Positions 2,777 through 52,921 of a DNA stretch of 64,000 nt are shown here, one piece after another. Position 1 is the first letter of the stretch. Each line of letters begins with the position of its first letter. A program made the position numbers and the translations under genes. The notes under the pieces were generated by a model. It worked only from the letters and a program-made list of their open reading frames with translations, was not told the origin of the DNA and made no database searches. The DNA is from Enterobacteria phage KhF1: sequence record KT184313.1, one strand, 5' to 3'.

Positions 2777-3256
2777 TTAACCGAGGACTTTAGCAAGGAT
2801 ATTCGCAGCCATCGAAGAAGCTTTTGCAGCAGCAACTACGCCAGCTTTGACAGTGCTATCCTTAATAGCAGATACCGTTGCAGCATCAGTAAAGAGATAA
2901 GTGATTGTTTTGGAACCACTTGTAAAGGAAAGCATAAGGGTAGTTTCCAGATTGAAAGAGCGATACGGAGCACCTTCTTTAACGATACCTTCAGCACCTA
3001 ACTCTGAAGCCTTACCCATATCATAGATAGTCATCAGGTTTTCTTTGTGTGCAGTCGTTGAACCAACACCTTTTACGTGCTTCTTAACGTTCAACAATGC
3101 ACGATATTCACGAATGCTGCCATCAGCTTTTACATTAACAGCACGGAAAATTTTACCTTCAAAGTTACCTTGAATCATTTTACGAACTACTTCAGATTTG
3201 TTTGCCGTATCGTCCAGTGCTACCGTAATGATATTGTTCATAAGTTCTTCTCTCAA
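2777..3256 (-). CDS. Hypothetical protein (159 aa)
   Basis: ORF followed by intrinsic terminator. Confidence 0.45.
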   Translation of the reverse strand: MREELMNNIITVALDDTANKSEVVRKMIQGNFEGKIFRAVNVKADGSIREYRALLNVKKHVKGVGSTTAHKENLMTIYDMGKASELGAEGIVKEGAPYRSFNLETTLMLSFTSGSKTITYLFTDAATVSAIKDSTVKAGVVAAAKASSMAANILAKVLG

Positions 3257-3948
3257 TGTTTAACTAACATGGTTTTAATGTGTGGAAGGATTCTGTTTAC
3301 CTTCTGAACATTCTTCTCTGTATCTTCTATAAAGCATACTATATTAAAGTAAGGAAGAATGCAAGACTGAATCATCCTCACTTTCAAACTTTCTGCACTT
3401 ATAGAGTTAGTTCCAAAACCACGCATAAAAAGCAAGTAATCATGCTCTATATTGTGCCTTAAAAACATCTCAGTAGGTATTCTCTGAGATTCACCTCTTG
3501 CTGTCAAGAGTCCAACTGCTGCATGATTTGCAATTGCATCAATAATGTTGAAAACATATGTTGGTTTTGCTCTTACAGAATCAAGAAGATTAGTGTACTG
3601 TGAGAATGACCCATCAGTCAATTCCGTTGAGCAATCTTCGTGATTAAAATTTGTAAGAACACCATCAATATCTGCTAAGATGAGGTTACCTTTTTCTACA
3701 AGGTCTTTATTGACTATCACTAAGCTATCACGCCTTACACCTATAGTTTGTCCAGTCTCTTTGTCCACAACGTTCACAATGGGTTCTGATGTGTGGAACT
3801 CTTCAAGTGAACATACAACCTCTCTTGCAGTGTCTTCAAAATCTCTGCACTGTTCTGGAGTCCATACACAGGAATCAAGACCTAACTCATGAGGATGCAA
3901 GTCATAAGCGTGGCACAGGACTTCATCAGACTTTCTTAATTTTTTCAT
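3253..3948 (-). CDS. HAD-like hydrolase/phosphatase (possible nucleotidase) with N-terminal extension
   Basis: ILADIDGVLTN matches HAD motif I (DxDx[TV][LV]) but lies about 95 aa from N-terminus; 231 aa. Confidence 0.4.
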   Translation of the reverse strand: MKKLRKSDEVLCHAYDLHPHELGLDSCVWTPEQCRDFEDTAREVVCSLEEFHTSEPIVNVVDKETGQTIGVRRDSLVIVNKDLVEKGNLILADIDGVLTNFNHEDCSTELTDGSFSQYTNLLDSVRAKPTYVFNIIDAIANHAAVGLLTARGESQRIPTEMFLRHNIEHDYLLFMRGFGTNSISAESLKVRMIQSCILPYFNIVCFIEDTEKNVQKVNRILPHIKTMLVKH

Positions 3949-4474
3949 GATTTACCTTAGAAATGTTTGTTGCAAATTCACATTGAGCGATAACTTTCAT
4001 ATTGTTATAGACATCTTGAGAGTATTTCTTAGCTTTAGGGATTCTGTACGAATACCCAGCATTATATGATGCTAAAACTTTTTGTAAAGTCTTCTTTGAC
4101 TTTGGCTGACCATGCACCTTTGTCCAAAACTCAAGCTCTTTGTGAGTTTCCTTCGCAGCATAGTCAAAGTCTTTTAAGAGTTTCTTTTTAGCCACATTAG
4201 GACTAATTTTGTTACGCTTTACAACAGTCTTCAAGTGATTCTGGAAAATACCATAATCATGTGTCTTTTTATTCTCTACCTTCAGACCTAACTCTGACTC
4301 TTGTAAGGCTATAGCAGCTAGAGTGATACCCCAACCTTTACCCATGTTATTCTCACCATACTGGTAAGCTTTTAACATGTTTACTTTTTGGCTAATTGAT
4401 AGCTCTGGGCAGTCAACTGCATAAGATAAGTGTGCTGTAAACATTAAGCACAAACCTAGAATCAATTTCTTCAT
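3926..4474 (-). CDS. Secreted lytic transglycosylase (SLT domain), probable endolysin
   Basis: Sec signal peptide MKKLILGLCLMFTAHLSYA; SLT motifs ALQESELG, GIFQ, SYNAGYS. Confidence 0.6.
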   Translation of the reverse strand: MKKLILGLCLMFTAHLSYAVDCPELSISQKVNMLKAYQYGENNMGKGWGITLAAIALQESELGLKVENKKTHDYGIFQNHLKTVVKRNKISPNVAKKKLLKDFDYAAKETHKELEFWTKVHGQPKSKKTLQKVLASYNAGYSYRIPKAKKYSQDVYNNMKVIAQCEFATNISKVNHEKIKKV

Positions 4475-4534
4475 TGGTTCTCCTGTTTAGTTTATCGTGA
4501 CAACAATTATACAGTACTCTGCACAAAATACAAA

Positions 4535-4561
4535 TAAAAAAGGCCGCCGAAGCAGCCTTTT
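4535..4561 (-). terminator. Intrinsic terminator downstream of rIIB-like gene
   Basis: Minus strand reads GGCTGC-TTCG-GCGGCC followed by T6; stem 4542-4557. Confidence 0.6.
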
Positions 4562-4574
4562 AAGAAATTACTTA

Positions 4575-5684
4575 TTAGATTTCACGTTTACGCTGAGAGA
4601 TAAGTTCACCAGCAGTGCCAACGATGACATGCAGAGCTTCAGTCTTGCCATCCCACGCTTTCAGTACCTTACGTTGATTATCAACGATTGCTGCAACTTC
4701 ATAACGAGACGAGCGCATCTTCATATCATTGTAATCAGTTGGAACAGATACAACATCTCGTGGATGGACACGAACCTTCAGAATTGTATCGCCTGAGAAG
4801 CAACGAACATAATCCCAAGCACCAACGTGAAGACCTTGAGAGCAAGTCACGTTACGGTTATTATCAACCATCCAACGTGGCATTTCTACAACGTTACCCA
4901 AATCATTAGGTACTTTGTAGGTGTGGGAGTCAACCAGCTTGCCTTCACGAGTGGATACTTTCTTCCAACCAATGATGTAGCCTTCCTCATCAATTTCGAC
5001 ATCAAGGTGAGATACGAAGCCCCAAAGTTGTTCTACAGAGTCTTTAGATGGGTTTTCCATCAGTTTTTCGAAGAACATCACAAGGCGTTCAAAGCCTTTG
5101 TCTCCAGTCTTCATCATGTGAAGAATACGGTCAACCAGAGTAGAACGCATCTCAACAGCACCGTAGAATAGCTTGTCGCCTTTGATTGTGATAGCACCCT
5201 GAGTGAAGTTTTCGATAGACTTACGAATGTTCATCAGTTCAAATGCTTTCTTGAACTCACCTTTCACAACATGAACTACAATCTCTTGATAGTTCGGATG
5301 AGTAGACTCAACAATTTCAGATTCTGAACCATAAGTCATAATTACAGAATCACCAGTAATCATGTACTCAATCTTGTCATCTTTCTGCATAGCTTCGTGC
5401 AGTTTATTTACTGGAGCTTTCTGTACAGCGTCTTTAACTACCTTTTCAACTGGTTTTCCATCTTTCTTCTTAAAGGTCTTAGCAACTTGTTTCAAAGTCT
5501 TCGTAGCTGGTGTAGAAGTTGCCTTCTTATTCCCTTTTAAGGTTGCTTCATGACGCTCTACAGCACGACCGACTGAACGGGTTGAAGTATTAAATTTCTG
5601 TGCAATAGCTGTTTTAGTCAGCTTACCTTCTTTAACCAGTTTGTAAATTTCTGCGTCAATCTGTGCTTTAGTTTTAGTAGTCAT
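4575..5684 (-). CDS. rIIB: rIIB-like protein
   Basis: 369-aa ORF immediately downstream of rIIA-like gene; assignment mainly by synteny and size. Confidence 0.45.
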   Translation of the reverse strand: MTTKTKAQIDAEIYKLVKEGKLTKTAIAQKFNTSTRSVGRAVERHEATLKGNKKATSTPATKTLKQVAKTFKKKDGKPVEKVVKDAVQKAPVNKLHEAMQKDDKIEYMITGDSVIMTYGSESEIVESTHPNYQEIVVHVVKGEFKKAFELMNIRKSIENFTQGAITIKGDKLFYGAVEMRSTLVDRILHMMKTGDKGFERLVMFFEKLMENPSKDSVEQLWGFVSHLDVEIDEEGYIIGWKKVSTREGKLVDSHTYKVPNDLGNVVEMPRWMVDNNRNVTCSQGLHVGAWDYVRCFSGDTILKVRVHPRDVVSVPTDYNDMKMRSSRYEVAAIVDNQRKVLKAWDGKTEALHVIVGTAGELISQRKREI

Positions 5685-38892: not shown

Positions 38893-39153
38893 ATGAAAAT
38901 TGAACACTGCTATGAGTCTGATGGGACACCTATCCGATGTCCACATTGTGGGTGTACAGACTTACAAGGTGAAGTTCATGTGATTGTTAATGGTCATATA
39001 GCTGAAGAAAGTACTACATGTGTTGGTTGTGGTGAGCATCTATCATTCTGGGCTTATGGTTCATACCAACCTACACCACACCTAATATACCATAGCAATA
39101 AAGCCGTGAAGAATGTTATCAACTGGTTCATTAAGAAAGGATTTACAAAATGA
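38893..39153 (+). CDS. Small zinc-ribbon protein
   Basis: CPHCGC ... CVGCGEH; 86 aa. Confidence 0.4.
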   Translation: MKIEHCYESDGTPIRCPHCGCTDLQGEVHVIVNGHIAEESTTCVGCGEHLSFWAYGSYQPTPHLIYHSNKAVKNVINWFIKKGFTK

Positions 39154-39695
39154 TTAAATTAATCTTTGCAAGTGGTGAAAATGGGGAGTTTGGTACTCCA
39201 ACTGGTATGCCGTGGCCTCGACATAAACAGGACATGCAAGAGTTTAAGAGACTCACTAAAAATAACTTAGTAGTCATGGGTAATGAGACTTTTAAGACTC
39301 TGGGTAGTAAACCTTTACCAGAACGTGCAAACCTCATCTTAACAAATTCTGTACCATACTTAGGTATAGACTTTGGCAAAGATGATGTAATGTATGCTAA
39401 AGCCAGTAAAGAGTCATTTGGAGCATTTTTGAAGTATCTTGATAGCTCTATTGATGAAGATGTCTTTGTAATTGGTGGTGCAGGTGTCCTTGTCAATGCT
39501 TTACCGTATGCTGGTGTGGTGTTCCATACAGTCTTCCATAAAGTTACTGAAGAGGCCACTGTGCATTTACCTTTTGAAAACTTCTTTGAGAAGCTGTATG
39601 ATAACCGTGTATTTACAAAGGTACAGTCAAAACCATCAGAGGATGGTAAAGCAACCTTTGAAATTTATGTTCCACAAGTAAAAGGACACTTTTGA
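39150..39695 (+). CDS. Dihydrofolate reductase
   Basis: N-terminal MIKLIFA...GxxGxxxxMPW and downstream LVVMGNETF resemble DHFR; 181 aa; adjacent to thymidylate synthase. Confidence 0.8.
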   Translation: MIKLIFASGENGEFGTPTGMPWPRHKQDMQEFKRLTKNNLVVMGNETFKTLGSKPLPERANLILTNSVPYLGIDFGKDDVMYAKASKESFGAFLKYLDSSIDEDVFVIGGAGVLVNALPYAGVVFHTVFHKVTEEATVHLPFENFFEKLYDNRVFTKVQSKPSEDGKATFEIYVPQVKGHF

Positions 39696-39696
39696 T

Positions 39697-40596
39697 ATGT
39701 CACAAGCAGATTCAAGTTATAAAAATATCCTGAACCATGTTTTATCAGTCGGTGAACTGCGTACTACACGAACTGGAGATGTTATCTCTGCATTCGCTCC
39801 ACCTCAGTTTCGTTTTGATATGAGGACTGGTTTTCCACTATTGACATCTAAACAGGTGTTTACACGGCAAGTTATTGGGGAAGCTTTATGGTTCCTGAAC
39901 GGTGAGAATAAGCTTGGTGAACTCCGTTACCGTACTTGGGGTGAAAATGATGGAGAACGCTGGACTATCTGGTCTGATGATTTTAAGCGCTGGTTAAGCT
40001 CTAATTATTCTTCTGAACAAGATTGGTTAGAAGATGCAGGTGGAAGAATCTATGGGGTTCAGTGGAGAAACTTTGAAGGTCATAATGGTTGTGTTGTAGA
40101 CCAGTTAGAAACCCTAGTAACAAAGATGAAAGGTGATATCACAGACCGTTACATGCTTGTTAATGCTTGGAATGCAGCAGATATTGCAGCAAACTCAATG
40201 GCTTTAGCACCTTGTCATGTCCTGTTTCAGATTTATATTACTAATGAAGGTGAAGTAGATTTGCAATGGTATCAGCGTTCTGTAGACACCTTTTTAGGAC
40301 TTCCGTTTAACATTGCGTCTTATGGTTTTATTCTGGAAGTTCTTTGCAAGATGACTGGATATACTCCACGATACTTGATAGGTGTCTTTGGAGATACCCA
40401 GATTTATCAGAATCATATGAAGCAGGTTTATGAACTGATGAACAATGAAGAGTTTCATGCACCTACTTTTGAGATTGGTATACCACTTAATAATTTAAGT
40501 GACTTAAAACATCTTACTGCAAGCGACTTTATTGGTGGCATTAACAACTACCAACATGCAGGGAAGATTGAAGCACCTCTGTCAGTAGGCAAGTAA
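39697..40596 (+). CDS. Thymidylate synthase
   Basis: Active-site block ALAPCHVLFQ (catalytic Cys); 299 aa. Confidence 0.85.
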   Translation: MSQADSSYKNILNHVLSVGELRTTRTGDVISAFAPPQFRFDMRTGFPLLTSKQVFTRQVIGEALWFLNGENKLGELRYRTWGENDGERWTIWSDDFKRWLSSNYSSEQDWLEDAGGRIYGVQWRNFEGHNGCVVDQLETLVTKMKGDITDRYMLVNAWNAADIAANSMALAPCHVLFQIYITNEGEVDLQWYQRSVDTFLGLPFNIASYGFILEVLCKMTGYTPRYLIGVFGDTQIYQNHMKQVYELMNNEEFHAPTFEIGIPLNNLSDLKHLTASDFIGGINNYQHAGKIEAPLSVGK

Positions 40597-40632: not shown

Positions 40633-41004
40633 TTATCTTTCAGTATTCTTTGTGTTCTTTTCAGTAATAGCTTGGAGGGCTGATACTGATTGAGCCAGAT
40701 TGTTCACACTGTCAGAGAATTTATCAAGAGTTTTGGTAAGTTTTGCGTTTTCACCCTTAACATTCTCTAACTGAACTTTCTGGTTCTCCATCCCTAGCTG
40801 AATCAGTCTCATGTCAGACTGTAAATCACGAATAGCTGAATAGTTACTTTTGGAATAATTATCTAGCTGCTGTAACTTTGTTGTGACAGACACTTCTTGT
40901 TTACCACTTGAAACCTGCATCGTGGTATACATCCCAATAACACTAAAAATACCAACTACAATTGCACCAATATTATTTTTAAAAGCTTCCTCTAGCCACT
41001 TCAT
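40633..41004 (-). CDS. Membrane-anchored coiled-coil protein (123 aa)
   Basis: N-terminal TM IGAIVVGIFSVIGMYTT then coiled-coil-like region. Confidence 0.4.
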   Translation of the reverse strand: MKWLEEAFKNNIGAIVVGIFSVIGMYTTMQVSSGKQEVSVTTKLQQLDNYSKSNYSAIRDLQSDMRLIQLGMENQKVQLENVKGENAKLTKTLDKFSDSVNNLAQSVSALQAITEKNTKNTER

Positions 41005-41199
41005 TTATTTCTCCCCCTTAAAAGCTTTTTCTAAGTTATCTACGAACTCATCATCAATAGGTGTGTCTGTTTTACTCGCAAGGTATCTTGCAAGCTTAAA
41101 GAACACTTTCTCAATCATGTATTCACTTAGAAGGGATAAAATGAGTTTCCAGAAGAAGCTACCTAGATTTTTTAGAAGAATTGCTAGGATTGTAGGCAT
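41005..41199 (-). CDS. Small hydrophobic protein (64 aa)
   Basis: Hydrophobic N-terminus; ATGA-type junction with downstream gene. Confidence 0.3.
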   Translation of the reverse strand: MPTILAILLKNLGSFFWKLILSLLSEYMIEKVFFKLARYLASKTDTPIDDEFVDNLEKAFKGEK

Positions 41200-41278
41200 T
41201 TAATCACCTCATCAGCCAAGATGGTGAGAATACCCATAAAAAATATTAACACCATCTCAACAATCAGTCAACAAGGGA

Positions 41279-43663
41279 TTAAGCAGTTCTTACCCAAGCC
41301 ATTAACTTGTAGAACTGGTTAGTAACACTAAATGCTGAACCAGAACCTGTACCACCAGTGTTACCACTAACTGTATGAGTGTGAGCACCGATACCTACAG
41401 AGTGGGTGTGAGCACCAGTGTTACTTGTAGTACCAGACCATGTGTGTGTATGGTTACCAGTCGTGTTAGTGTTAGGGAATTTGTTATCAGTTCTGTCAAG
41501 CCAGTCAAGAGTTCTTGTCTTATTGTTACCAATAGTGGTATATCCGTACTGAGCATCACCACCATTAACCAATAGCAGACCTAAGTGGTGAGCGTGGTTA
41601 CCAGCAGCACTTGTTGTACCACTTACAGAGTGAGTATGACCACCAGTGCTATTAGTGTTCTTCGTACCATAATCAAAAGAGGAAGTGGTAGCAGAGAAAC
41701 TATGGGTGTGTGATGGTAAGTTACCAACAGCTAACGTCACAGAATCTGAACCACCTGTTGTAGCAACATCTGAACCGTTTGCTGCTGCAATTCTGATAGT
41801 TCTACCAACACCATTGTTCAGGTACGTCCAAGTTAGACCAGGAAGTGCTGTATTAGGGTTAACGTTGCTGTTAAACCACGTTACAATACCTACTGGATAG
41901 ATTTTATTAAGGTCTGTAGAGTCACTAATTGCTTCTGCAATCTTCTGGTCAGTCTCTGCTTTAGTGTATGCACCGATATCTGAAGGGGTTGGTTTAAAAT
42001 CAGTTGTGTAAAGCTGTGCCTCTCCGGCATAGTCACCATTTTTGTCATAGGCATAGGTAAATGTTGCCAGTCCATTTGAGCCATACACAAAAGAGATTCC
42101 TCTTGCATGTGCAGCAGTCTTATTAGAGTGAGCAACATGAATTGCCAATTCTCTCAGTCCACTAGCAACCTGATTGTTTCTGACAAAACCTGAATATCCA
42201 AGATTAAAACCTGAAGGGTTTTCAAGGTTATCTACAGAAACAGTCATTAAGGATTGGTTTAATAACTGAGTTTTAACAAAATATCTAGCATCTAAGTTAG
42301 ACCAATCAGAAGGTTGAACTTGACCAGTAATGGTTAGGTTCTTATTAGCCTTAATCGCTGAAGGCATAAGAGTAATTTGAGTCCCAGAGTAGCTGTTGTT
42401 TAATGCCACATCAGTAGAATTTGTGCCACCCACACCTACCCACCACCTAGATACATTCTGGGTATCAACACCACGGATATATTGTGGCTGCCCCTGTGTT
42501 AAGTTTCTTAATACTACGCCTTCATTATTTGATACAATAGTTTGCACATTCACAAATGTGTTAGCAACATTAAGCTTAGGTAGGTTACTCAAAGTTGCTG
42601 CCGGAATATATCTAGAGTCAATATTAGTCCAATCCGAAGGTTGAACTTGACCAGTGATTCTGAAGTTCTGGTTGACTGAGATATAGCCATTATCAAGTCT
42701 GATATTTGAACCGTGTACATAGTTGTGTAGCAGCACAGAGGCTGTGTTATCCCCGTTCCCTACATACCACCTGTTAGTGTTCTGAGAGTCAACACCCTGA
42801 ATGAATAGTGAGCTAGTTGTTGCATTTTTCAACCTTAAAGCAGCACTGTCACTGATAATAAGTAGGTTTCTGCTAAACGTGTTAGTGCCAGTGAAATTGT
42901 TATTCGCAGCTAACTGTGCAAATCTCTGATTAGCAACTGTCTGAGTAAAGTATCTAGCATCTAAGTTAGAGAAATCTGAAGGTTGAACTTGACCAGTGAT
43001 TGCTAAAGACTTATTAACAGAGACATTACTTGCAACAGTCAAGGCTGAGTTGTATTTGTTATTGTACAGCTTTACTTCGTCAGAGCCATTACTACCAATA
43101 CCAACCCACCATCTAGCCGAACCATCTAGGTTTACACCTTCGATATATTGTGCATTATTTGCATTTTGGTTTCTAAGGCGAAGTAAGCTAGCATCACCTT
43201 GAATATTTTGAGTTCCAGAGAATGTGTTTGTGATAGCTAGTCTTGCATACCTTGCATCATTCTCTTCATTAGTTCTCATCCCAAGTTCATTAGGGCTTGG
43301 CTTATTCAGAGTATGATAAACAGTTGCCGACCTTGAAGTGTCTGCAATAGTCAGTTTAAGGCCATTTGCGTTGATTTTAAAAGTCTTTAAAACATCCCCA
43401 ATATTAATCTCAGAAGAGCCTGTTGGGTTAAATACTACCTTACCACCATAAAGTAACTTAACAATCCCTAAGTCACCCGCCATAGTGCTGCCAGCAATCT
43501 GAACAAATCTTTCAAGTTTAAAAGATGCTAAGAAATCTTGATAGGTCATTCGACGGTCTTCATCGCCAAGCATTTCAGGTCTCTTTTTAACTCTGACATG
43601 AAGAAGGTCATCTGAACGGATTGTATCGATTGAGTTTAATTCACTCAACTTGTAATCTGCCAT
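41279..43663 (-). CDS. Long tail fibre protein with internal repeats and His-box C-terminal tip
   Basis: Four roughly 105-aa repeats ending ITGQVQPSD(F/W)(S/T)N(L/I)D(A/S)RY; C-terminal HTH/HxH repeats; 794 aa. Confidence 0.7.
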   Translation of the reverse strand: MADYKLSELNSIDTIRSDDLLHVRVKKRPEMLGDEDRRMTYQDFLASFKLERFVQIAGSTMAGDLGIVKLLYGGKVVFNPTGSSEINIGDVLKTFKINANGLKLTIADTSRSATVYHTLNKPSPNELGMRTNEENDARYARLAITNTFSGTQNIQGDASLLRLRNQNANNAQYIEGVNLDGSARWWVGIGSNGSDEVKLYNNKYNSALTVASNVSVNKSLAITGQVQPSDFSNLDARYFTQTVANQRFAQLAANNNFTGTNTFSRNLLIISDSAALRLKNATTSSLFIQGVDSQNTNRWYVGNGDNTASVLLHNYVHGSNIRLDNGYISVNQNFRITGQVQPSDWTNIDSRYIPAATLSNLPKLNVANTFVNVQTIVSNNEGVVLRNLTQGQPQYIRGVDTQNVSRWWVGVGGTNSTDVALNNSYSGTQITLMPSAIKANKNLTITGQVQPSDWSNLDARYFVKTQLLNQSLMTVSVDNLENPSGFNLGYSGFVRNNQVASGLRELAIHVAHSNKTAAHARGISFVYGSNGLATFTYAYDKNGDYAGEAQLYTTDFKPTPSDIGAYTKAETDQKIAEAISDSTDLNKIYPVGIVTWFNSNVNPNTALPGLTWTYLNNGVGRTIRIAAANGSDVATTGGSDSVTLAVGNLPSHTHSFSATTSSFDYGTKNTNSTGGHTHSVSGTTSAAGNHAHHLGLLLVNGGDAQYGYTTIGNNKTRTLDWLDRTDNKFPNTNTTGNHTHTWSGTTSNTGAHTHSVGIGAHTHTVSGNTGGTGSGSAFSVTNQFYKLMAWVRTA

Positions 43664-43675
43664 TATAAATTTTCC

Positions 43676-43700
43676 TCTTAAAAGGGGCTATCAAGCCCCT
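43676..43700 (-). terminator. Intrinsic terminator downstream of short tail fibre gene
   Basis: AAGGGGCT-ATCA-AGCCCCT hairpin 43681-43699 with T-run on minus strand. Confidence 0.5.
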
Positions 43701-43709
43701 GTAAAGAAA

Positions 43710-44897
43710 TTAAGCTGTTCTCTGCCATACATACAGTACGAAGGATGGCTGCTCAATGTTAAAAGCTTGTCCACCACCAACACTGTTAGTGTTCCCGCTA
43801 TGCGTATGCTCAGAAGAAGAAACTGTTACAGTACCATTGTGTGTATGTGAACCAATACCAACCGTATGGCTGTGAGCACCAATACCAACCGTGTGGTTGT
43901 GGTTACCAGTCGTGTTAGTGGTCACACTGAAAGAGTGGGTGTGTGAACCAGCAACTTCACAGACAGCATCTGCTGAGTACCATGATTGGTCATTCCTTGA
44001 AGACCAAACCATTGCAGGTCTTTCCGATAGACCACCACCTGATTCATAGGTCAATCTGTGGTTATGAGCACCAGCAGAACTTGTTGACCCACTACCAACA
44101 TGGTTATGGTTACCAGTCGTGTTAGTGGTCTTAGTTCCATAGTCAAAAGAGTTAGTAGTCTTAGTTCCATAATCAAAAGTTGAAATTGACACCGTTGCAT
44201 TATGAGTATGACCACCACCACTAAGAGACACAGAGTGTGAGTGTTGTGGCATGTTATTAACTGACAAAGTGACAGTTGAAGCACCAAATACAGAGCCTGC
44301 TGGTCTTGTATCAGAGTCATAACCAACCAATGCTCTACCTTTTGAAACTAACTCCCAAGTTCCTCCACAAATTAAATACGTAGAAGGGTTTGCAGAGTTC
44401 ATGGAAAGATGGATAGTACCTACTGGATAAGAAGCCTGAACAGCCTTGTACAAGTTATTTACTGCTCTTGCTGTAGCATACTTATCTGCATCTTCGTTAT
44501 AAAGGTTAGATGTTGTCCAGTTCTGAACATTACTCAATCCTACCTGTGCCTTAGTTGTATTATGTGGGTTGCTCTTGTCCTGAATATGCTGTTGAACAAG
44601 ATTATTAACCTCTTCTGAAGACATAATCTGTAGATTTGCTCTTGCCTGAGCTACATTAACAATATCTGATAAGTTATTTGCAGCAACTAACTGAAGAGCA
44701 TTAATAACGTTATCTAAACCAATTTGTGTTTTAGTCACACCATGAGGGTTATTTCTTAGGCTTGAGTGTGGAGCAAGTAATTGCTCAAGAGTACATCTCT
44801 TATCCTCAATACCCTGCTTAAGATGGAAGATATCACTAAGGTCAATTGGTAAGGCTGCTTGAGGCAAGGCACTAATTTGAATTTCACCTACCGCCAT
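43710..44897 (-). CDS. Tail fibre protein with His-box C-terminal tip
   Basis: N-terminal NPH..TK.Q(I/V)GL.NV repeats; C-terminal HSHS/HTHN/HNH repeats; C-terminus similar to long fibre; 395 aa. Confidence 0.65.
   Translation of the reverse strand: MAVGEIQISALPQAALPIDLSDIFHLKQGIEDKRCTLEQLLAPHSSLRNNPHGVTKTQIGLDNVINALQLVAANNLSDIVNVAQARANLQIMSSEEVNNLVQQHIQDKSNPHNTTKAQVGLSNVQNWTTSNLYNEDADKYATARAVNNLYKAVQASYPVGTIHLSMNSANPSTYLICGGTWELVSKGRALVGYDSDTRPAGSVFGASTVTLSVNNMPQHSHSVSLSGGGHTHNATVSISTFDYGTKTTNSFDYGTKTTNTTGNHNHVGSGSTSSAGAHNHRLTYESGGGLSERPAMVWSSRNDQSWYSADAVCEVAGSHTHSFSVTTNTTGNHNHTVGIGAHSHTVGIGSHTHNGTVTVSSSEHTHSGNTNSVGGGQAFNIEQPSFVLYVWQRTA
44122..44181 (-). repeat. Perfect-frame 30-bp tandem duplication inside tail fibre gene
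   Basis: Two adjacent 30-nt units differing at 2 positions, encoding FDYGTKTTNS twice. Confidence 0.7.
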
Positions 44898-44899
44898 TA

Positions 44900-52921
<8,022 letters not shown>

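Follow-up and report, generated by a model that had tools for sequence, protein, structure and literature searches.

Histidine-rich tips on both tail fibres of Enterobacteria phage KhF1 and their probable homology to the receptor-binding tip of T4 gp37

Introduction

Both tail fibre proteins of Enterobacteria phage KhF1 end in runs of the histidine motif HxH, which raises the question as to what these runs do and how two different fibres came to carry them. The DNA analysed here (the window) is a stretch of 64,000 nucleotides from sequence record KT184313.1. A sequence-only reading of it had interpreted the runs as metal-coordinating, receptor-binding tips of the kind found in T4 gp12 and gp37, arisen by domain shuffling or duplication.

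In the tip of T4 gp37 (crystal structure 2XGF), the histidines point to the three-fold axis and bind seven irons, the metal being Fe2+; H929 and H931 are essential, and the receptor contacts sit in a His-free tip (PMC6957217). Tips of this type on both fibres are already known for the genus Felixounavirus. The C-termini of gp74 and gp75 of phage VpaE1 were described in 2015 as homologous to the T4 gp37 adhesin, with a carbohydrate in the truncated LPS core as the receptor (PMC4690856), and the 2025 cryo-EM study of Bas63 reported a gp37-like collar, an HxH needle and a head in both fibres, together with HxH counts (PMC12609058).

Results

The two fibre genes and their neighbours

The window is from a Felixounavirus (Felix O1-like) phage of E. 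coli; its nucleotide identity to LF82P3, XTG1 and KhF3 is 97.9%. The long tail fibre gene (LTF) is an open reading frame at 41279..43663 on the minus strand, encoding 794 aa plus stop. Its product shows 100% identity to the tail fibre protein of KhF1 (P0121), matched the PHROGs tail fibre family phrog_4277 over its full length (E=0) and contains three Pfam gp37_trimer matches. The short tail fibre gene (STF), an open reading frame at 43710..44897 on the minus strand (395 aa plus stop), matched the tail fibre family phrog_2097 (E=1e-137) and Pfam Gp10_C (E=1e-18), and its homologues are present throughout the Ounavirinae. LTF and STF are neighbours, and both are encoded on the minus strand.

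Directly upstream of STF, a gene at 44900..45202 (minus strand) encodes a 100-aa protein of phrog_4141 (E=3e-61). It agrees in position and length with bas63_0025 and is the counterpart of the LTF-platform, Bas63 gp25, the baseplate attachment point of the fibre (PMC12609058). The gene order wedge 2, wedge 1, LTF-platform, STF, LTF and the gene lengths match those of Bas63 and VpaE1. STF and LTF are the orthologues of gp26 and gp27 in Bas63 (JohannRWettstein), where wedge, LTF-platform, STF and LTF follow in identical order, and of gp74 and gp75 in vB_EcoM_VpaE1. The small open reading frames 3' of LTF (41005-41199 and 40633-41004) were compared with PHROGs as candidate fibre chaperones and matched only families of unknown function.

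HxH motifs are numerous, non-random and conserved

LTF contains six HxH motifs, at aa 652, 676, 690, 738, 752 and 761, the third of which is spelled HAHH with an additional histidine at 693. STF contains nine, at aa 219, 230, 264, 278, 319, 333, 342, 351 and 364. The runs noticed in both C-termini are therefore real, and all the spellings given for them (HTHS, HSHT, HNHT and HAHH) were found. When either the whole protein or its last 260 aa was shuffled with composition preserved, the observed counts were reached in 0 of 20,000 shuffles for LTF and STF alike; shuffled sequences had means of 0.5-1.4 motifs and a maximum of 5 (LTF) or 7 (STF). The HxH histidines are 100% conserved among 121 LTF homologues and mostly 77-100% conserved among 74 STF homologues. 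Single histidine columns are invariant or nearly so with variable positions next to them (54-121 homologues), and the homologues compared have between 4 and 10 motifs per tip.

Both tips align with the T4 gp37 tip

The C-terminal regions of the two fibres can be aligned with each other (LTF 562-794 against STF 136-395; 33% identity, E=4e-23, BLASTP), as the sequence-only reading had anticipated. For both, the best PDB match found with phmmer was 2XGF (LTF aa 650-773, E=1.3e-20; STF aa 146-367, E=1e-26). A three-way alignment paired the T4 motifs at 883, 915, 929, 966, 980, 989 and 998 with all six LTF motifs and seven of the nine in STF, so that six of the seven T4 iron sites are matched in LTF and all seven in STF. 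LTF 652, 676 and 690 align with T4 883, 915 and 929, and LTF 738, 752 and 761 with T4 966, 980 and 989; the T4 998 repeat is missing from LTF. STF 219, 264 and 278 likewise align with T4 883, 915 and 929, and STF 319, 333, 342 and 351 with T4 966, 980, 989 and 998, at the T4 spacing of 14, 9 and 9; overall, the motif spacing of 14/14/9/9 is identical to that of T4. Nothing in T4 corresponds to the STF motifs at aa 230 and 364 or to LTF His693. Over aligned columns, the LTF and STF tips are 44.6% identical to each other, and 43.6% and 40.3% identical to T4 gp37. Both fibres thus carry the same gp37-related, putatively metal-binding type of tip, as had been proposed. T4 gp12 differs from them in having a single metal site, another receptor-binding domain and no multi-HxH needle.

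Beyond this 40-44% identity, LTF and STF follow the layout of T4 gp37, whose collar is domain D10 and whose needle and tip are domain D11: a collar part, the ascending stem, the head, the descending stem and the collar again. They also have the FDYGTK repeat in common with it. They differ from T4 gp37 in motif number (six in LTF; nine in STF, two of them extra and collar-proximal), in a C-terminal collar strand that is ~9 residues longer and in head sequences that are unrelated. Four proteins make up the T4 fibre, whereas the tips described here belong to fibres made of one polypeptide. The chaperone gp38 of T4 had no homologue in the 64-kb window (tblastn best E=0.8), so the folding route of these fibres may differ from that of T4.

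Parts of the tip modules

With the T4 domain limits of PMC6957217, the full homologous module spans aa 581-794 in LTF (~41282-41923) and aa 155-395 in STF (~43713-44435), all parts being on the minus strand. In both, needle and head are inserted in a gp10/gp11/gp12-like collar, and the C-terminus comes back to the collar.

In LTF, the N-terminal part of the collar (aa 581-650, 41714..41923) corresponds by alignment to T4 gp37 D10 811-881 and is 90-98% identical in nucleotide sequence to Bas63, EC6 and VpaE1; a Pfam Gp10_C match covers aa 586-700. The ascending needle strand (aa 651-692, 41588..41713) with the motifs at 652, 676 and 690 is followed by a His-poor insert, the head subdomain (aa 693-731, 41471..41587), which maps to T4 932-959. 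The descending strand (aa 732-768, 41360..41470) holds the motifs at 738, 752 and 761, and a Pfam Phage_fiber repeat lies at aa 757-769. The chain ends in the return to the collar (aa 769-794, 41282..41359), 92-100% identical in nucleotide sequence to relatives and modelled by AF2 as a strand with a pLDDT of 88.

The STF module is built in the same order: N-terminal part of the collar (aa 155-217, 44247..44435), ascending strand (aa 218-280, 44058..44246; motifs at 219, 230, 264 and 278), head (aa 281-~315, 43953..44057; again T4 932-959), descending strand (aa ~316-369, 43791..43952; motifs at 319, 333, 342, 351 and 364) and return to the collar (aa 370-395, 43713..43790), which is 88-98% identical in nucleotide sequence to relatives and an AF2 strand with a pLDDT of 92. 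The ascending strand carries a 30-bp tandem duplication encoding FDYGTKTTN twice (44121-44179).

This anatomy changes how the first description of the tips has to be read. The intervals given there, 41279-41560 and 43710-44000, do lie inside the tips but cover the descending half only: the former corresponds to LTF aa 702-794 with three of the six motifs, and the latter to STF aa 300-395 with five of the nine. HAHH, one of the spellings given, falls outside the first interval, at 41585-41596. The terminal strings quoted, QAFNIEQPSFVLYVWQRTA for STF and SAFSVTNQFYKLMAWVRTA for LTF, are the true C-termini, and seven of their 19 residues are identical; this shared segment had been taken as part of the tip, but in the alignment it falls in the collar (T4 1010-1026), at the end of the module most remote from the receptor. 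The tip type was correctly recognized, yet by homology to gp37 the HxH runs are a structural stem rather than a receptor contact, because the gp37-like chain runs out, forms the head and runs back; it is the head that would contact the receptor.

AF2 monomer models reached a pLDDT of 70 and 58, with heads below 50; the metal sites would form only in the trimer. Fold searches with these models recovered the collar only, and not 2XGF.

The head is the variable part

The LTF head is the most variable part of its tip, with 22-45% nucleotide identity to Bas63, EC6 and VpaE1 and a local entropy peak. In STF, column entropy is highest at aa 281-320 (74 STF homologues), and the head has 32-42% nucleotide identity to relatives. 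Both the entropy and the nucleotide-identity profiles show that the His-free head, lying between the two stems, is hypervariable. Along the two genes, a drop in nucleotide identity to Bas63, EC6 and VpaE1, to 22-50%, is seen only at LTF aa ~681-740 and STF aa ~261-320, with flanks at 90-100%. The suggested comparison with related phages of other hosts gave the same picture: in relatives whose isolation host was O157:H7 or Salmonella, the collar half is kept at 90-95% identity and the distal part differs. To judge from these profiles, exchange among relatives is confined to the distal hairpin of the fibre tips. The predicted receptor-contacting end of each fibre is the head, LTF aa 693-731 and STF aa 281-~315.

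Against Bas63, the collar and C-terminal arms have 90-98% nucleotide identity and the distal needle and head cassettes 27-50%. Bas63 STF has 7 HxH motifs compared with 9 here, and the junction motif of its LTF is HHxH (aa 692, 693, 695), where the window has HxHH (aa 690, 692, 693). The head cassettes of VpaE1 and the window also differ, with 38-52% nucleotide identity; therefore, their receptor specificity may not be shared.

Origin of the two tips

In a neighbour-joining tree with 100 bootstraps, the LTF tip grouped with Klebsiella-prophage-type tips in 93 of 100 replicates and STF with an Ounavirinae clade in 89; LTF and STF were joined in none. In BLASTP, the LTF tip scored 176 bits against P0098 and 86 bits against the STF of the same phage. 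Its closest relatives outside Felixounavirus are the fibre tips of Klebsiella and other enterobacterial prophages of P2-like type (45-47% identity, 164-176 bits), such as P0101, 'putative prophage tail fiber protein [Klebsiella pneumoniae]'. Those tips have 6-7 HxH motifs and a C-terminal strand, AFSVTNSFIKLMAWYRSA, near-identical to that of LTF; the fibres that bear them belong to another phage type and have a wholly different N-terminal shaft (Pfam PF12571, PF03406). When the LTF and STF tips were searched for shared DNA repeats, no extended identical stretch of the kind expected of recent gene conversion emerged, only patches of 18-90 nt with 65-90% identity.

These data bear on whether the tip was copied from one fibre gene onto the other by recent duplication in the genome, with the copies since drifting apart or kept alike by gene conversion. 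Such an origin would suit the adjacency and identical module order of LTF and STF, the C-terminal extension of ~9 residues relative to T4 that they have in common, and the short patches of DNA similarity, of which 41600-41689 against 44070-44159 (74% identity over 90 nt) is an example. It agrees poorly with the 33% BLASTP identity of the tips, which are about as distant from each other as from T4 gp37, with the lack of a long, highly identical DNA tract, with the tree, and with a score of the LTF tip to Klebsiella-prophage-type tips twice that to its own STF. In addition, an STF-type tip is conserved in Ounavirinae-like phages of Erwinia, Pectobacterium, Yersinia and Hafnia, so the split between LTF and STF would be old. 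Recent duplication is thus quite improbable, and between the two origins proposed earlier, shuffling is favoured. On the tree and alignment scores, the LTF and STF tips are separate lineages within one widespread module family.

Discussion

The LTF and STF genes very probably each end in a homologue of the receptor-binding tip module of T4 gp37. The homology, the in-register histidines, their conservation and the map of variability were observed here; the identity of the metal, the geometry of the trimer and the receptor we infer from T4 and from the published work on Bas63 and VpaE1. By homology, the tip would be a trimer of three chains. Each chain would form part of the collar, extend as one of the six intertwined strands of the needle, build a small head at the distal end, and run back along the needle to end in the collar. 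At each HxH, six histidines (two from each of three chains) would face inward and hold one metal octahedrally, which would place ~6 metal sites along the needle of the long fibre and up to 9 along that of the short one, holding the thin needle together like rivets. The host receptor, expected to be lipopolysaccharide for this genus, would be contacted by the His-free head, and host range among Felixounaviruses would change when the distal hairpin (outer needle and head) is exchanged between conserved collar-proximal arms.

Two other readings of the histidines were considered. The runs could be a low-complexity linker of Gly, Ser, Thr and His without any role in metal binding, the similarity to gp37 being compositional. 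The region is indeed rich in these residues, a BLAST low-complexity filter removed part of it in some searches, and AF2 confidence was only moderate. A linker is nevertheless extremely unlikely, given that composition-preserving shuffles did not reach the observed counts, that the motif spacing equals that of T4 residue for residue, that near-invariant histidine columns stand among variable neighbours, and that the same histidines are iron-bound in the T4 crystal and essential by mutation (PMC6957217). The motifs could also form a receptor-binding or catalytic surface, i.e., a metal-dependent glycan-binding or hydrolytic site, instead of an internal rivet. This was implied by the heading of the sequence-only reading, HxH is common in metalloenzymes, and there is a weak Pfam YmaF match (E=0.047). 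We consider it very unlikely: in 2XGF the histidines face the three-fold axis and the receptor is contacted by the His-free tip (PMC6957217), and in LTF and STF it is the histidines that are conserved and the head that is hypervariable. Conserved histidines together with a hypervariable head fit a buried structural element that flanks the specificity surface, not an exposed binding site.

The gp37-like stem and head add no new biology to the genus, since the same anatomy is in print for sister phages. Their significance is that the tip modules set which bacteria the phage attacks. With the His-free head as the putative specificity element, exchanged between the collar-proximal arms, the module boundaries may serve as cut sites for retargeting Felix O1-like phages in therapy and diagnostics. 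Taken jointly, the data also allow a more tentative reading, to which we give somewhat less than an even chance: the number of HxH rungs may be a freely tunable unit of needle length, the rungs and the head may be swapped jointly as a single distal-hairpin cassette, and the LTF cassette may be common to the fibres of P2-like Klebsiella prophages. If so, the collar-proximal motifs at aa 230 and 364, which are specific to STF, and the LTF junction HxHH would be additional or altered metal sites that are absent from solved structures, and lytic Felixounaviruses and temperate prophages of another genus would use one pool of tip cassettes.

Identity of the phage and its fibre locus

The window comes from an E. 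coli myovirus of the Felix O1-like group, a Felixounavirus. Over the 4.3-kb fibre region it shares 97.9% identity with Felixounavirus LF82P3 and 97.6% with phages XTG1 and KhF3. Two neighbouring minus-strand ORFs encode the fibre proteins: the long tail fibre (LTF; 41279-43663 (-), 794 aa; 100% identity to the KhF1 'tail fibers protein') and the short tail fibre (STF; 43710-44897 (-), 395 aa). Upstream, also on the minus strand, are genes for a 100-aa protein (phrog_4141), a 285-aa baseplate protein (DUF2612) and a 489-aa Baseplate_J protein, a gene order identical to that of gp23 to gp27 in Bas63 and gp71 to gp75 in VpaE1.

In the matching region (window 41000-45300) of KT184314-KT184316 (KhF2, KhF3, XTG1), a 'cos site' and a 'putative P22 C1-binding site' are annotated within or beside the fibre genes, an unexpected location that looks like an annotation artefact. 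Two small ORFs with hydrophobic N-termini, judged by reading the sequence, lie downstream of LTF: 41005-41199 (-) (64 aa, phrog_402), directly 3' of it, and 40633-41004 (-) (123 aa, phrog_4038), whose resemblance to coiled-coil or Rz-like proteins is weak. Some related records label a gene of the 40633-41199 region 'holin'; the two products could act in lysis or in the assembly of the fibres. At ~40.6 kb the minus-strand structural module meets plus-strand nucleotide-metabolism genes (DHFR, 39150-39695; thymidylate synthase, 39697-40596) head-on, so that two transcription units converge there. The sign of the GC skew switches at about 30 kb.

Both fibres carry a T4 gp37-type tip

The sequence-only reading described runs of His-x-His (HxH) motifs and a related terminal segment in both fibres. 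All of the quoted spellings and both terminal strings are present: LTF has six HxH motifs (aa 652, 676, 690, 738, 752 and 761), with an additional His693 forming HAHH, and STF has nine (aa 219, 230, 264, 278, 319, 333, 342, 351 and 364). Composition-preserving shuffles gave a mean of 0.5-1.4 motifs, and none of 20,000 trials reached the observed counts. Over their C-terminal ~235-265 residues, LTF and STF can be aligned with 33% identity (E=4e-23). The coordinates proposed for the tips, 41279-41560 (LTF aa 702-794) and 43710-44000 (STF aa 300-395), take in no more than the final third of each module; the ascending-strand motifs lie outside them, including the HAHH at 41585-41596.

The suggested kinship to the T4 gp37 tip was borne out, as the best PDB match of both fibres is its crystal structure, 2XGF (E=1.3e-20 for LTF, 1e-26 for STF). 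Pfam detected the Gp10_C collar domain in both proteins; LTF additionally matched the Phage_fiber HxH repeat and had three gp37_trimer domains. In a three-way alignment with T4 gp37, whose tip region has seven HxH motifs (883, 915, 929, 966, 980, 989 and 998), all six LTF motifs are in register and the 998 repeat is missing, while seven of the nine STF motifs align and the extra two (230 and 364) are each collar-proximal. The inter-motif spacings of 14, 14, 9 and 9 are those of T4. Such histidines hold seven iron atoms in the T4 needle, and H929 and H931 are essential there (Islam et al. 2019, PMC6957217). The case for metal sites in LTF and STF rests on homology to this solved structure, and the sites would form only in the trimer.

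Domain layout

T4 domain limits (Islam et al. 2019, PMC6957217) were transferred through the alignment. The collar (D10; T4 gp37 811-881 and 1010-1026) corresponds to LTF 581-650 and 769-794 and to STF 155-217 and 370-395; the stem (T4 882-931 and 960-1009) to LTF 651-692 and 732-768 and to STF 218-280 and ~316-369; and the head (T4 932-959) to LTF 693-731 and STF 281-~315. The terminal segment, which had been taken as part of the receptor-binding tip, is indeed common to both fibres, but on these limits it is the strand returning to the collar and not the receptor end; the predicted receptor end is instead the central, His-free insert of the module. The ascending needle strand of STF contains a 30-bp tandem duplication (44121-44179 (-), aa ~240-259; 93% identity) that encodes FDYGTKTTN twice. 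LTF has one copy of this element, and the T4 gp37 equivalent is DLGTKTTSSFDYGTKGTN.

Origin of the two tips and exchange among relatives

Domain shuffling or duplication had been offered to explain the shared tip type. Over aligned columns the LTF and STF tips are 44.6% identical, and they are 43.6% and 40.3% identical, respectively, to T4 gp37. In a neighbour-joining tree of 45 tip modules (100 bootstraps), LTF tips grouped with a set of prophage-type fibres (93/100), one of them recorded under the name of a Klebsiella pneumoniae prophage tail fibre; a separate clade held the STF tips of Ounavirinae-like phages (89/100), another the T4-like tips (90/100), and no replicate united LTF and STF (0/100). 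By BLASTP, the LTF tip scored 176 bits against P0098, a homologue with a Klebsiella-prophage-type tip, versus 86 bits against the STF of the same phage, and DNA similarity between the two tips is confined to short segments (65-90% identity). On these results, a recent duplication within the genome is rejected. The shuffling part of the proposal fared better: the comparisons agree with a widespread module that has two old lineages and is exchanged horizontally.

Across 121 LTF homologues, conservation of the HxH histidines is 100%, and across 74 STF homologues it is mostly 77-100%; several of these residues are invariant or nearly so even in alignments extended to T4-like and prophage fibres. 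Column entropy peaked at STF aa 281-320 and, inside the LTF tip, at aa 701-730. Nucleotide identity with Bas63, EC6 and VpaE1 is 90-98% across the collar and first HxH, falls to 22-50% at LTF aa ~681-740 and STF aa ~261-320, and returns to 92-100% in the last ~35 residues. With conserved arms flanking a divergent middle, the exchange unit is the distal hairpin (outer needle and head), which fits a fold whose arms lie side by side at the collar. A tblastn survey found that many Felixounaviruses isolated on O157:H7 or Salmonella match the LTF tip in its collar half alone (90-95%). In explicit alignments, EC6 LTF has a different head and only four HxH motifs versus six, and Bas63 STF has seven versus nine. 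In the EC6 annotation, the orthologue of LTF is split into two overlapping CDS (541 and 259 aa; 2853-4478 and 4444-5223 of the EC6 sequence), probably a frameshift or sequencing error within the fibre gene.

Shaft repeats

Three 70-nt direct repeats (42278-42347, 42605-42674 and 42947-43016; 77-84% identity) encode a conserved linker, ...ITGQVQPSDWxNLDxRY..., joining beta-helix domains of the LTF shaft; these domains account for the three gp37_trimer matches and resemble the T7 gp17 fibre (PDB 4A0T, E=1e-6). Among relatives the linkers keep 80-93% nucleotide identity and the domains between them 28-57% versus Bas63 and EC6, with VpaE1 retaining 65-88% in the more C-terminal domains. The shaft domains are thus a second mosaic layer in addition to the tip, and shaft mosaicism is likewise commented on for Bas63 (PMC12609058). 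In the STF shaft (44526-44750), NPHxxTKxQ[IV]GLxNV occurs twice (aa 50-64 and 110-124); many unrelated PHROG tail-protein families match this stretch of STF only, and the repeated motif is probably the Bas63 'triple alpha helix and turn' motif.

Proposed working of the tips

Three chains would intertwine and, with two histidines per HxH, six histidines would hold a single axial metal ion, which by analogy with T4 is probably Fe2+. The LTF needle would carry about 6 ions and the STF needle up to 9, stiffening a very thin six-stranded beta structure, and the head at the far end would bind the receptor. LPS is the probable receptor, judging from two relatives: Bas63 is LPS-dependent, and VpaE1 binds a truncated LPS core that is periodate-sensitive and proteinase-resistant (PMC4690856). 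For Bas63, its authors have proposed that sensing begins with the long fibre and that the short fibre acts like T4's short fibres. No T4 gp38-like chaperone was found in the 64-kb window, so assembly may use other helpers.

Relation to published work

Both VpaE1 fibres have a region in common with the T4 gp37 adhesin (Šimoliūnas et al. 2015, PMC4690856). The 2025 cryo-EM study of Bas63 (PMC12609058) described for both fibres a tip like that of gp37, composed of a collar, an HxH needle and a head, a chain that doubles back at the head, seven di-histidine motifs in STF and six plus one extra His in LTF, and tips as the variable part across the genus. In view of these reports, the tip observation is correct and already known. 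Particulars of this phage are limited to the nine-motif STF needle, the HxHH junction of LTF (Bas63 has HHxH there) and the kinship of the LTF cassette with tips of the Klebsiella-prophage type.
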